Origin: a phage
Length of the DNA: 64,000 nucleotides
Reading direction: 5' to 3' (one strand)
Sequence record: PZ386966.1
How positions within the stretch are numbered: the stretch's first letter is position 1; every line of letters starts with the position of its first letter. The notes under the pieces were generated by a model. That model was not told where the DNA came from. It searched no databases and saw only the letters and a list, made by a program, of their open reading frames with translations. The translations under genes and the position numbers were made by a program. Positions 28,367 to 40,541 of the stretch are shown piece by piece.

Positions 28367-28417
28367 ACAGATACTATAAGGGAACTGTAAAGGTTCCCTT
28401 TTTATTTTGGAGATGAT

Positions 28418-28933
28418 ATGTATCTGTCAAATCTAAAACGTTCTGCTGCAATGACAGTATTAAGACTCAGCTTTGAGGAACGTCAAGAGTTCATTGACTC
28501 CCACCAATACGACCCTTCTAACTCCAATCACATGATTCTATGGAATCGTGACAGCACTCGTGAGAGAGCACTATTCCGCTACTACCCACATTACACCATA
28601 GATAACCTGTATGAATGTTTTGTTGTGAAGAACACCATTACAGTACTCAATAAACTTTGCAGATACACAGGTAGTCAATCCTTCACATTAGGACACCACA
28701 AACCTGTTACAAAGGGTGGTGAGCATCACTGTGCAAACTGGTTTATCCAGACTAAACTTGATAACCAGAAGCAAGGAGATAACCTTCTAAGCACACCTAA
28801 GATGACCTATGAAGAGCAAGAGAAATATATCAAAAATAATATGCCAGATGTGCTTGACAACAACTATACAGATTTGGCAATATCTCTCCTGTTGAAGTTC
28901 GAGACAGTTTATAGGGCAACTTATAATGGCTAA
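28418..28933 (+). CDS. putative HNH-family nuclease
   Basis: HHKPVTKGGEHHCANWFIQTKLDNQKQGDN resembles HNH (His-Asn-His) core. Confidence 0.4.
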   Translation: MYLSNLKRSAAMTVLRLSFEERQEFIDSHQYDPSNSNHMILWNRDSTRERALFRYYPHYTIDNLYECFVVKNTITVLNKLCRYTGSQSFTLGHHKPVTKGGEHHCANWFIQTKLDNQKQGDNLLSTPKMTYEEQEKYIKNNMPDVLDNNYTDLAISLLLKFETVYRATYNG

Positions 28934-29204
28934 AGAAAAGTGGGAAATTTTACCATTAGTCAGTGAAGGTGGTAATGGTTGTGAAATGTATATGATACGG
29001 GGTCATGTTCCAGAACCAATTGCACTTGAGATGGTAAACAACTTTACAGATGGTTCATACAAAGATTTAGGGGAACCAACTGTCAAGCAACAATGGGTTA
29101 AACCTGTACCAGACAGCACAGGTAACTGTAGTGTACTTTACCACGTTGTAGACCCTGTAAAATGCAAATCTGCAATGGCAGTAACAAACGTAACTTTTGA
29201 TTGA
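28926..29204 (+). CDS. hypothetical protein
   Basis: 92 aa ORF. Confidence 0.35.
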   Translation: MAKEKWEILPLVSEGGNGCEMYMIRGHVPEPIALEMVNNFTDGSYKDLGEPTVKQQWVKPVPDSTGNCSVLYHVVDPVKCKSAMAVTNVTFD

Positions 29205-29215
29205 GAGAGAAAACT

Positions 29216-30097
29216 ATGAAAACTGTTATTGAAGCCGTCGTCACAGCACAAGAGAAATTCTTCCACACAGAAAAATTTAATATCATTCAATTCCCATCTG
29301 GAGAAATTGGTGGAAACTTCTCTGAAGATTTTGTTAAGTTTACTGAACGTAATGCTGGTAAGATTGACAATGTTATACTCACTGTGCAGGGGTATGACAA
29401 AGATACACTGTTTGCATTAGCTTTGGCTAAGGATGCCGTTGACAGTCTTGTTCCCCAGAAATCAGCGATGAAAACCGTTGTTTTCGGATACTTACCAAAT
29501 GCTCGATATGACCGTCATATGTTCAAAGGTGATTCAGCAGCACTGAAAGTTTTTGCCAACCTCGTTAATGCAATGGGTTTTGATGCAGTATGTGCTCTTG
29601 ACCCTCACAGTAATGTTGCAGAAAACTTATTTAAGTGCTTTCAGAGCATGAAGCAAAAAGATGTTGCAGCACACTTTGCAAGTGACCCACGCATTGATTT
29701 CTTGGTAGCACCAGATGCAGGTGCAGCTAAGAAGACTGAAGATGCCGCTAAAGAGGTAGATAAACCCTATATCACAATGTCTAAGGTTCGCAATCTTAAG
29801 ACTGGAGAAATCACTGGTATGCGAGTCCTTGACGATGTTGATTTGACCGATAAAACTGTCATGATTCTTGATGATATCTGTGATGGTGGTCGAACCTTCG
29901 TGGAGGCAGCTAAACACCTACGTGAAGCAGGTGCAAAACGTGTGGAACTCTATGTAACTCATGGTATTTTCTCTAAAGGTGTTGAAAGCTTACTTGACAA
30001 CGGTATTGACCATATCTACACTACAAACTCTTTAGGTGAAGCTAAAGACCGTGGCTTAACACATTATGGCCAAGTTACTGTAGCAACCATTGATTAA
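29216..30097 (+). CDS. ribose-phosphate pyrophosphokinase (Prs)-like enzyme; candidate ADP-ribose pyrophosphokinase of an NAD+ reconstitution pathway
   Basis: PRPP-binding-loop-like VMILDDICDGGRTF; size and layout of Prs family. Confidence 0.7.
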   Translation: MKTVIEAVVTAQEKFFHTEKFNIIQFPSGEIGGNFSEDFVKFTERNAGKIDNVILTVQGYDKDTLFALALAKDAVDSLVPQKSAMKTVVFGYLPNARYDRHMFKGDSAALKVFANLVNAMGFDAVCALDPHSNVAENLFKCFQSMKQKDVAAHFASDPRIDFLVAPDAGAAKKTEDAAKEVDKPYITMSKVRNLKTGEITGMRVLDDVDLTDKTVMILDDICDGGRTFVEAAKHLREAGAKRVELYVTHGIFSKGVESLLDNGIDHIYTTNSLGEAKDRGLTHYGQVTVATID

Positions 30098-30141
30098 AAC
30101 TTATAGGGGCTTAAAAGCCCCATTTTGAGAGAGATTAAAAG

Positions 30142-31923
30142 ATGACTAAATCACTTTATGCAGTACCAGCAGGTCTTAATGCAGATGCTTACAAGGCATC
30201 ACATATATATCAGTATCCAGATGCTACGCAATATCTTATGTTGAACCTGACACCACGTAGTGACAAATGGTTTAACAGCCCCTTAGCAATTGATGGTGTG
30301 GTGGCTTTTGGTATTCAACGTTTTGTTAAAGATTACTTGATAGACCACTGGAACGCAACTTTCTTTGAGCGTGATAAAAAAGAAGCAGTTGACGAAATCT
30401 TAGAAGTCATGAATGGTGTTCTGGGTAAAGATGCTATCGGTCGAGAGCATTGGGAAGCACTTCACGACTTAGGTTATCTACCAGTTGAAGTATACGCTGT
30501 AGAAGAAGGCACAGTTGTCCCTATGCGTGTTCCGATGATTGTTTTCCAGAACACTGTTTCAGGTTTCCATTGGGTAGCAGGTTATCTGGAAGATGCTTTC
30601 TCTGCTGAGATTTGGAAGGCTTGTACCATTGCAACTATTGCATTGCACTACAAACGTATCTGTAAGAAGTGGGCTGACCTTACTTGTGACAACGACTTGC
30701 ATTTACCTTATCAGTGCCATGACTTTGCTATGCGTGGTATGTCCGGCTTTACTGATGACGCATTTAACGCTGTAGGCCACTTAACCAGCTTTAAAGGAAC
30801 TGATAGCTTTCCTGCTGTGTATACGGCTAAACGAATCTATGGACAGTCCTACCCAATCTCTGATATTGGTAGTTCTGTACCAGCCACTGAGCACTCTGTA
30901 ATGTGTGCAAACATTGCTTGGGAAGGTGGTAATGAATTGATTGAAGAAGAAAGACGCTTCAAAGGTGAGTTGCAAACCTTCCGTCGCTTCTTAACAGAGA
31001 CTTACCCGACTGGTATTGCAAGTATTGTTTCAGATACTTATAACTTCTGGAGAACTGTGTCAGAAATCTTACCAGCACTTCGTAAAGAAATTATGGAACG
31101 TGATGGTAAACTGGTAATTCGTCCTGACTCTGGAGACCCTGTACACATTGTCACAGGTTATAAAGCAATCCACTTAGAGTGTGCTAAAAAGGCTTATTAT
31201 GAGCACCTAAGCAAGCTGGAAGCCAGCGACACAATGTTGAATGCTGTTCTGAACATGAAGCTTGAAAACATCAACTATGGTATTGCTGGATGGCTACTGT
31301 CAGAAGGCTACGAAATGGTTGTTGACAGAGAAGACTTTGAAGCTGCTGATACGGTGATGTTGAAAGATGCTTATATGGTTGGTTCTGCAAACGTTGTAAC
31401 ACGCCCTGTAGCGGAGATTGATGGAGCTATTAAGACACTGTACAACATCTTTGGGGGAACTATTAACTCTAAAGGGTTTAAGGTACTGGATGAGCATATC
31501 GGTCTTATCTATGGCGACTCTATCACGCTGGAACGTGCAAACGAAATCCTGAAGCGTCTGTATGAAATGGGTTTTGCAAGCTCTAACGTAGTGTTTGGTG
31601 TAGGCTCTTACACTTACCAGTACATGACTCGTGACACCTTTGCATTTGCTGTCAAAGCAACTCTTGCAAGCATTGGTGGTAAAGAGATTATGCTTGCAAA
31701 AGACCCTAAAACAGATAGTGGTGTTAAGAAATCTGCTTTTGGTGGTGTAGCACCTATGTGGGACGGTGATAAGCTGAAAGCTGTAGATGGCTATGGGTTC
31801 CAGAGTTTTGCAGATGTACTTGACCACCCAGCTTGTGCCTTACGTTTAGTCTTTAGTGACTCTGAGCAGTTCGGTTACACAACTCTTGGTGATATTCGAA
31901 ATAATATTGACAAGCAGCTTTAA
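30142..31923 (+). CDS. nicotinamide phosphoribosyltransferase (NAMPT/NadV)-like enzyme
   Basis: 593 aa; N-terminal DAYKASHIYQYPD resembling NAMPT DSYKVTHYKQYP; immediately downstream of Prs-like gene. Confidence 0.75.
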   Translation: MTKSLYAVPAGLNADAYKASHIYQYPDATQYLMLNLTPRSDKWFNSPLAIDGVVAFGIQRFVKDYLIDHWNATFFERDKKEAVDEILEVMNGVLGKDAIGREHWEALHDLGYLPVEVYAVEEGTVVPMRVPMIVFQNTVSGFHWVAGYLEDAFSAEIWKACTIATIALHYKRICKKWADLTCDNDLHLPYQCHDFAMRGMSGFTDDAFNAVGHLTSFKGTDSFPAVYTAKRIYGQSYPISDIGSSVPATEHSVMCANIAWEGGNELIEEERRFKGELQTFRRFLTETYPTGIASIVSDTYNFWRTVSEILPALRKEIMERDGKLVIRPDSGDPVHIVTGYKAIHLECAKKAYYEHLSKLEASDTMLNAVLNMKLENINYGIAGWLLSEGYEMVVDREDFEAADTVMLKDAYMVGSANVVTRPVAEIDGAIKTLYNIFGGTINSKGFKVLDEHIGLIYGDSITLERANEILKRLYEMGFASSNVVFGVGSYTYQYMTRDTFAFAVKATLASIGGKEIMLAKDPKTDSGVKKSAFGGVAPMWDGDKLKAVDGYGFQSFADVLDHPACALRLVFSDSEQFGYTTLGDIRNNIDKQL

Positions 31924-31976
31924 AAGTATATGATAAGAGGCTCCTACGGGAGCCTTTTTAATTTCTGGAGAATGCT

Positions 31977-32326: not shown

Positions 32327-32662
32327 ATGAAAATCAAAGAGATGAACATCAACATTATCTTAGAAGAACGTTGGGAAAACATTAAGAAGCCTGAAGGTGG
32401 TAAAAAGTTCCTTAACAAAATTTTAGTAGCAGCTAAAGAAGAACTGACTGGCAAGATTGCAGCAGCAATCACAATAAAAGTCTGTGTAAAAGGTCTTCCA
32501 CAACATCACCAATTTGCACTTGACGAGTTTAAAGAAAGCTTCTACAATCCAAACAAACAGATGCTTGAAAGTAACTTTGCAGTATCTACAAGTATCGTCC
32601 ATGACAGAAGCTTTATCCTTTACAAGAATATGAGAGGTGAGTCATGCAAGCATATTGGATAG
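32327..32662 (+). CDS. hypothetical protein
   Basis: ORF 32315-32662, start uncertain. Confidence 0.3.
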   Translation: MKIKEMNINIILEERWENIKKPEGGKKFLNKILVAAKEELTGKIAAAITIKVCVKGLPQHHQFALDEFKESFYNPNKQMLESNFAVSTSIVHDRSFILYKNMRGESCKHIG

Positions 32663-32820
32663 AAATTTTACTATCACTTGGTAGTGTAGCAGTGTTTGTT
32701 TACCTTCTTTGCAAGTACTATGCAGAGTACAAGAAGTGTGACTACTGCAATGGGGAAGGGTATACAAGGGCAGGTTGTTGCCCTATGTGTGGTGGTTCTG
32801 GTAAAATGTTTAATAAGTGA
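32644..32820 (+). CDS. small membrane-anchored DnaJ-type zinc-finger protein (58 aa, below ORF-track cutoff)
   Basis: Manual translation: hydrophobic N-terminus then CDYCNGEG...CPMCGGSG (CxxCxGxG x2); GAGG RBS. Confidence 0.4.
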   Translation: MQAYWIEILLSLGSVAVFVYLLCKYYAEYKKCDYCNGEGYTRAGCCPMCGGSGKMFNK

Positions 32821-39755: not shown

Positions 39756-40541
39756 ATGGGTATTGTAAAAATCATCAATGGTGATATCTTTGCAGCATTT
39801 GATAAAGGTAAGTTTGACGTCATCGGTCACGGTTGCAACTGTATGAACCTAATGGGTGCAGGTATCGCTGATAAGATTTCTAAACTTTACCCAAAAGCAT
39901 ATGAGACCGATACAGAAGTTTATCTATATGCAGGCGGTATAGGTCACAAACCCTGTGAAAATTTACTGGGTAATTTCTCCGTAGCACGTTTAAAACAAGG
40001 CCGTATAGCTAACCTTTACACTCAGCTTAAGACTGGTAAAGATGCTCGATATAGTGCTTTAGAGTCATCTTTGAAACAGCTTAACAGATACTGTGAAGTC
40101 AATCAGTTGAAGAAAGTCGGGTTACCTATGATTGGTGCAGGTATCGGTGGGCTAGACCCCCAAGCCGTCACAGTTATCATCAATCAGGTGATGAAGAGTG
40201 TAGATGTGTATCTGTATGTCTATGAAGGAGAGATGTACCACAAGTTACACTCAGGTTGGGAGAACTACTGTGAACCAGAATACTTTGCAGGTGTAGCAGT
40301 GTTCACGGATAATGCAGTTACCCTCTTCAGACGAAGAAAAGGTAAGATACATCAAAGTAACCCTCCGGTTGAAAAGATGTCTCTAAGTAACGCTCTAGTT
40401 ACCCACCTGTCGAAGAGCAATCACAGAATTGCAGTAACATTTGGCAGTGATGCAGATACTTACATCTATGCAAGAACTGATGAGGATATCGAGACAGTTT
40501 TCTCTTCGCCGGAAGTTACCTTCTTAGACGCAAAGAACTAA
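39756..40541 (+). CDS. macro-domain protein (ADP-ribose binding/processing)
   Basis: IINGDIFAAFDKGKFDVIGHGCNCMNLMGAGIADKI and VGLPMIGAGIGGLDP match the two glycine-rich macro-domain motifs. Confidence 0.6.
   Translation: MGIVKIINGDIFAAFDKGKFDVIGHGCNCMNLMGAGIADKISKLYPKAYETDTEVYLYAGGIGHKPCENLLGNFSVARLKQGRIANLYTQLKTGKDARYSALESSLKQLNRYCEVNQLKKVGLPMIGAGIGGLDPQAVTVIINQVMKSVDVYLYVYEGEMYHKLHSGWENYCEPEYFAGVAVFTDNAVTLFRRRKGKIHQSNPPVEKMSLSNALVTHLSKSNHRIAVTFGSDADTYIYARTDEDIETVFSSPEVTFLDAKN

Follow-up and report, generated by a model that had tools for sequence, protein, structure and literature searches.

A Felixounavirus gene pair orthologous to the NARP1 operon of phage Bas63

Does a pair of adjacent genes in the phage DNA of sequence record PZ386966.1 serve to rebuild nicotinamide adenine dinucleotide (NAD+) after host defences have consumed it, or is it a classical nicotinamide salvage pair? 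The genes lie at 29216-30097 and 30142-31923 on the + strand of the 64,000-nucleotide stretch analysed here (the window), and an original prediction made from the sequence alone had described them as adjacent, co-oriented Prs-like and NAMPT-like genes, and as a candidate for the NAD+ reconstitution pathway NARP1. The open reading frames (ORFs) are exactly as described, and we conclude with very little doubt that the locus is a complete two-gene NARP1 operon of a Felixounavirus, orthologous to gp79-gp80 of phage Bas63. It is a system already known; in effect, the pair is the NARP1 type example as found in a sister phage.

In the ORF list the first gene, adps, encodes 293 amino acids from an ATG, with an in-frame TTG at 29201, and the second, namat, encodes 593; the two are separated by 44 nucleotides, and a Shine-Dalgarno-like GAGAGAG run stands ahead of each. 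Both of the motifs quoted in the original prediction are present, VMILDDICDGGRTF at residues 214-227 of the Prs-like protein and DAYKASHIYQYPD at residues 15-27 of the NAMPT-like protein, and its homology assignments pass the profile hidden Markov model check that it had proposed. The first protein matches TIGR01251 (ribP_PPkin, 2e-40, above the cut-off), phrog_619 (8.7e-100) and the Pfam families PF00156 and PF14572, and the second matches NF006629 (3.1e-141, above the cut-off), phrog_448 (7e-202) and Pfam PF04095 and PF18127, so both homologies are far above chance and exceed curated thresholds. A PADLOC scan gives only trivial phosphoribosyltransferase-domain matches (PsyrT, ShosT) for the first protein, and the other proteins scanned have no match. 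From the ORFs, the family matches and the Bas63 comparison below, together with residue mapping for the second protein, we annotate adps as an ADP-ribose pyrophosphate synthetase of the Prs family and namat as a nicotinamide ADP-ribose transferase of the NAMPT family.

By megablast the window belongs to the genus Felixounavirus; the 3-kb region is matched by 260 phage records, the best at 95-96% identity with tootiki as the top match, and a 25-kb stretch is ~93% identical to several members of the genus. One of these relatives is Bas63 (Escherichia phage JohannRWettstein), of the same genus; its genes 79-80 form the operon from which NARP1 was first described (bioRxiv 10.1101/2024.02.11.579819). 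There are several points of agreement. First, the window Adps is identical to gp79 at 284 of 293 positions (97%) and the window Namat to gp80 at 580 of 593 (98%), in gapless alignments of proteins of identical length, and the nine and thirteen substitutions leave all catalytic and clamp residues untouched. Second, the gene order is the same, with nrdG upstream of the pair and rIIA downstream. Third, both genomes have the same intergenic hairpin and the same terminator. The nucleotide identity is ~95%, and the window therefore represents a different isolate or species. Finally, published homologue tables list the Adps proteins of tootiki and Bas63 as Namat-associated and their Namats as 'Adps-associated' (bioRxiv 10.1101/2024.02.11.579819). 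The locus thus has adjacent, co-oriented Prs-family and Nampt-family genes in a phage genome and is orthologous to an operon shown to have a counter-defence phenotype, and it is this orthology that bears out the proposal of a NARP1-type pair.

That phenotype is well described. Deletion of genes 79-80 from Bas63 reduces plaques ~20-fold on SIR2-HerA cells and deepens NAD+ depletion; ADP-ribose pyrophosphate (ADPR-PP, m/z 720.010) appears during infection only with both an intact operon and the defence system; and the rescue is independent of host pncC or nadR, being seen also in a pncC nadR double mutant (bioRxiv 10.1101/2024.02.11.579819).

The Adps protein keeps the motifs of the Prs fold, namely the K190/R192 catalytic loop, RYDR (97-100), DPH (129-131) and DDICDGGRT (219-227). 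Its K190 (in KVR) aligns with K162 (in KQR) of the Adps of Bacillus phage SPbetaL1, a phage whose NARP1 has the same two-gene order, and corresponds to the flexible-loop lysine K197 of B. subtilis Prs; the SPbetaL1 K162A mutant is inactive (bioRxiv 10.1101/2024.02.11.579819). Published homologue tables, pairwise scores and Prs equivalog models indicate that the window protein belongs to the phage Adps clade and stands apart from cellular Prs: it is 34% identical to SPbetaL1 Adps (97 bits) versus 27% to E. coli Prs (63.5 bits), and it falls far below the cut-off of every Prs equivalog model, the broad subfamily model alone being passed. SPbetaL1 Adps makes ADPR-PP from ADP-ribose and ATP but gives no measurable product from ATP and PRPP (phosphoribosyl pyrophosphate; the figure legend has ribose-5-phosphate), a result that the authors interpreted to mean that the enzyme is not a Prs (bioRxiv 10.1101/2024.02.11.579819). 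Orthology and residue conservation predict that the window Adps would likewise use ADP-ribose as its pyrophosphate acceptor.

For Namat, the SPbetaL1 sequences were retrieved, the published numbering was confirmed, and each contact residue was mapped onto the window protein. The catalytic core is intact (D15, Y17, F195, R198, D221, H251, R327, D329 and G458-D459-S460), and the first eight of these residues map to contacts named in the published work except H251, which is our own assignment of the catalytic histidine (SPbetaL1 H245). Among 23 homologues D15, Y17, F195, D221, H251, R327 and D329 are invariant, R198 being the exception. R327 corresponds to SPbetaL1 R306, and the R306G mutant is dead (bioRxiv 10.1101/2024.02.11.579819). 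The SPbetaL1 contacts to nicotinamide, ribose and phosphate are conserved or conservatively replaced in the window (S190 by A196 and A362 by S460), and the SCH motif is conserved as well.

What distinguishes a Namat from a Nampt, according to a 2026 structural study, is an adenine-binding selectivity clamp formed by a variable beta1-beta2 loop and a conserved helix; the helix has the signature GS-X-Phi-X-Phi-X-Phi-TRD, whose residues 3 and 7 are aromatic, and the third residue of the loop is Arg, or else Lys or Tyr followed by a stacking residue, Bas63 illustrating the Lys variant (PMC12774641). The original prediction had proposed that binding residues be inspected, and in the window Namat both parts of this clamp are present: the helix G488-SYTYQYMTRD-498 fits the signature, and the loop S40-D41-K42-W43 is identical to that of Bas63 and follows the rule through K42-W43. 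SPbetaL1 has R40 in this role, and the window loop is four residues longer. At the helix positions H. ducreyi NadV has GAQTYQRNTRD and Xanthomonas (Xcc) Nampt has GGALLQKVDRD, both without the aromatics. An AlphaFold2 model of the window Namat has a mean predicted local distance difference test score of 92, and by sequence and fold it is best matched in the PDB by two Namat crystal structures, 9w5w and 9w5x (template modelling score 0.95 on the target), which rank above NadV and human NAMPT; structure prediction, a check proposed for both proteins, returns Namats as the closest folds of this one. SPbetaL1 Namat forms NAD+ from ADPR-PP and nicotinamide, with a preference for ADPR-PP over PRPP (PMC12774641; bioRxiv 10.1101/2024.02.11.579819). 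From orthology and the conserved residues, we infer the same preference, and direct formation of NAD+, for the window protein.

The proposed mechanism has four steps. A host defence of SIR2, TIR or SEFIR type would cut NAD+ to ADP-ribose and nicotinamide, a cleavage established for SIR2-HerA and others. Adps, with ATP, would then pyrophosphorylate the free ribose of ADP-ribose to give ADPR-PP, and Namat would exchange the pyrophosphate for nicotinamide and so yield NAD+ directly. In the window Namat, W43 of the beta1-beta2 loop together with Y490 and Y494 of the GSYTYQYMTRD helix would form the adenine-binding clamp through which ADPR-PP is preferred over PRPP. With NAD+ partly restored, the phage would escape abortive infection, an outcome shown genetically in Bas63 and predicted for the window phage.

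Several considerations weigh against this reading. The experiments concern relatives of the window sequence, with the genetics and the detection of ADPR-PP coming from Bas63 and the enzymology and crystal structures from SPbetaL1, and the activities of the window proteins are those expected from orthology and residue conservation. Bas63 Adps purified poorly, and it is for the SPbetaL1 homologues that enzymology was obtained (bioRxiv 10.1101/2024.02.11.579819); the window Adps shares only 30-34% identity with that of SPbetaL1, the one characterised biochemically (the Namats are 44-48% identical), and the PDB holds no Adps structure. Furthermore, Namat keeps some activity in vitro in converting PRPP to nicotinamide mononucleotide (NMN) (PMC12774641; bioRxiv 10.1101/2024.02.11.579819), which leaves room for a minor salvage role.

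The published work handles the two NARP1 genes as one operon (bioRxiv 10.1101/2024.02.11.579819), and hairpins bear on whether they form a single transcription unit in the window. The original prediction had placed a hairpin terminator after each gene, and this stands for the second gene but not for the first. The hairpin at 31935-31958 (+ strand), with a 10-bp stem followed by UUUUUAAUUU and identical in Bas63, has a folding energy of -16.6 kcal/mol (z -4.2, with none of 200 shuffles as good) and, together with its U-run, makes a convincing intrinsic terminator at the end of the operon. The GC hairpin GGGGCTTAAAAGCCCC at 30106-30121 (+ strand), which is also kept in Bas63, is real but weak (-12.2 kcal/mol, z -2.5); only AUUUUG follows its stem, and it is not called in a terminator scan of the + strand. 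We regard it as an intercistronic hairpin, acting perhaps as a weak attenuator or RNA-stability element, rather than as the end of a transcription unit.

The adps-namat spacer varies among relatives. In the window it (30098-30141) contains the GGGGCTTAAAAGCCCC hairpin only, and in phage ekra it contains an HNH homing endonuclease gene (1606-2097 of the compared ekra stretch); the matches to LinBro, TH10 and ECML-1 are likewise in two pieces, and an HNH gene is annotated beneath them. Among the records that carry the region, GU169904.1 bears the name Staphylococcus phage SA1 (147 kb); it has within it a Felixounavirus NARP1 region ~95% identical to that of the window, and its odd host label suggests a mixed or mislabelled assembly.

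A further question is whether the pathway extends beyond the operon. The Vibrio phages Gary and River4 have a longer form, NARP1-AP, with the gene order Adps-Adpp-Namat, in which a Macro-domain gene lies within the operon; Gary Adpp converts ADPR-1''-phosphate to ADP-ribose (ADPR), and the River4 Macro protein is listed as NARP1-associated (aRES preprint). The window shares with these phages homologues of Adps and Namat and also of the Macro-domain protein, a 261-residue product of 39756-40541 (+ strand; Pfam PF01661 at 1e-7, above the cut-off; phrog_335) and a possible accessory protein similar to Adpp, T4 Tk.4, TARG1 or Poa1p. It is the orthologue of bas63_0095, a 'putative phosphatase'. In contrast to Gary and River4, however, the gene is outside the operon, 7.8 kb downstream of NARP1 and not within two genes of it, and its product has an extra C-terminal ~105 residues with no Pfam match; any phosphatase activity is putative. 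The four genes upstream and the three downstream of NARP1 contain no Macro/Adpp or RyR/RyDEP domain in searches of Pfam (E up to 1) and PHROGs, and the operon itself is therefore a plain two-gene NARP1.

It is possible, if doubtful, that the distal gene nevertheless makes this a split NARP1-AP, in which the Macro protein would dephosphorylate ADPR-1''-phosphate to supply ADPR to Adps and Namat and the phage would also resist aRES-type cleavage. Several features are consistent with such an arrangement. First, the N-terminal 155 residues share 30% identity (E 6e-16) with the River4 Macro, whose gene stands between adps and namat; the start of this River4 protein and the start quoted for the Gary Adpp that was assayed differ at only two residues. 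Second, the protein is 34% identical to a Macro of Pseudomonas phage PN09 encoded two genes after namat. Third, it keeps the family motifs H-x-CNC...MG-x-G-(I/V)-A and P-x-IG-x-G, and Poa1p is among the solved structures matched by the family profile (7.5e-9). Fourth, the long Macro form is present in ~258 Felixounavirus-type records, roughly as many as carry NARP1. Against it, besides the distance from the operon, the window protein is slightly closer to T4 Tk.4 (35%, 82 bits) than to River4 Adpp, and phrog_335/Tk.4 proteins are frequent in T-even phages that are not known to have NARP1; no NARP1 was seen near tk.4, T4 itself not having been searched for Adps. The best solved relative, TARG1/OARD1 (1.5e-16), is a deacylase and de-ADP-ribosylase, and other substrates are equally possible. 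In addition, the published table of NARP1-Macro associations, for which two genes on either side were scanned, includes no Escherichia or Salmonella phage. Alternatively, the Macro protein may feed ADPR to Adps and Namat from O-acyl-ADPR or from ADP-ribosylated targets.

A much less probable interpretation is that the pair performs classical salvage, with a true PRPP synthetase providing PRPP to a true Nampt whose NMN product would be converted to NAD+ by host NadR or PncC. The Pfam, NCBIfam and PHROG names are indeed those of Prs and of Nampt/NAPRTase, and the residual in vitro synthesis of NMN from PRPP by Namat is as salvage would require. However, the window Adps fails the Prs equivalog models, SPbetaL1 Adps has the substrate behaviour described above, and the clamp signature found in the window Namat is missing from the two bacterial Nampt structures. 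E. coli Prs, H. ducreyi NadV (9ke8) and Xanthomonas Nampt (7yqo) have the same folds and catalytic cores as the window pair. Bacterial Prs and Nampt genes are only rarely adjacent (bioRxiv 10.1101/2024.02.11.579819). The original prediction had cautioned that NARP1 could not be told from PRPP-to-NMN salvage by sequence alone, a caveat that no longer holds: the Namat clamp signature is present (PMC12774641), the closest relatives stand in the published Adps and Namat tables, and Bas63 counter-defence needed neither host pncC nor nadR. We regard the salvage interpretation as largely refuted already and very unlikely to be correct.

It is more improbable still that the locus is of NARP2 type, in which Nampt and Nmnat make excess NAD+ from PRPP, nicotinamide and ATP, for although the second gene shares the Nampt superfamily with the KVP40 Nampt, the annotation of the Bas63 genome, which is near-identical, includes no Nmnat (not all window ORFs were scanned with an Nmnat profile), the adjacent Adps defines the NARP1 clade, and the Namats of relatives are tabulated with Adps.

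Within the NARP1 operon itself, Namat has an inserted alpha/beta subdomain of ~85 residues, encoded at 31159-31422 (+ strand; namat codons ~340-427). This subdomain is absent from SPbetaL1 Namat, which also lacks a second insertion of ~15 residues, and from all Nampts in the PDB, and it has no match to any solved fold. It is common to Ounavirinae-type Namats down to 45-46% identity, and other lineages have unrelated insertions at the same site; neither bioRxiv 10.1101/2024.02.11.579819 nor PMC12774641 mentions it. The subdomain could be regulatory or partner-binding.

Homologues of Namat are also found outside phages. Chromosomes of Klebsiella, Cronobacter, Kosakonia and Phytobacter encode 496-residue proteins annotated as 'nicotinate phosphoribosyltransferase' that are 47-49% identical to the window Namat and carry the Namat motif GS(F/Y)TYQYNTRD. 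This resemblance suggests that they are bacterial copies of NARP1 in Enterobacteriaceae, in line with the reported occurrence of NARP1 in bacteria (PMC12774641).

Two small genes on the + strand lie immediately upstream of adps, one at 28418-28933 encoding a 171-residue protein with an HNH-like motif and one at 28926-29204 encoding a 92-residue protein. They are bounded by a terminator-like hairpin (28378-28400) on one side and adps on the other, their junctions overlap or are close, and they may be co-transcribed with NARP1. A homologue of the 171-residue protein (52% identity) is encoded at the syntenic position ahead of NARP1 in Erwinia phage FIfi106, a Kolesnikvirus, and the 92-residue protein is not conserved at that locus. 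We considered both as members of the NARP1 module and rejected them, as the Kolesnikvirus comparison fits a conserved Ounavirinae gene order and not a functional link. Downstream of the pair, an ORF at 32644-32820 (+ strand), conserved as phrog_3931 and shortly upstream of rIIA, encodes a 58-residue protein that has a hydrophobic segment near its N-terminus and a zinc-finger motif of CxxCxGxG type (a weak match to the DnaJ central domain).

The window phage is predicted to rebuild NAD+ after depletion by SIR2-, TIR- or SEFIR-type systems, as Bas63 does. Identification of the NARP1 operon helps in annotation and in the prediction of host range with respect to NAD+-depleting defences; mechanistically it adds nothing new, and the forward-looking value of the locus lies solely in the distal Adpp-like Macro gene and the Ounavirinae Namat insertion. 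If the distal gene were indeed part of a split NARP1-AP, these phages would be expected to survive a wider range of NAD+-attacking defences, with resistance to aRES predicted. It would also follow that NARP1 accessory genes need not be linked to the operon, and surveys restricted to a window of two genes would undercount extended pathways.

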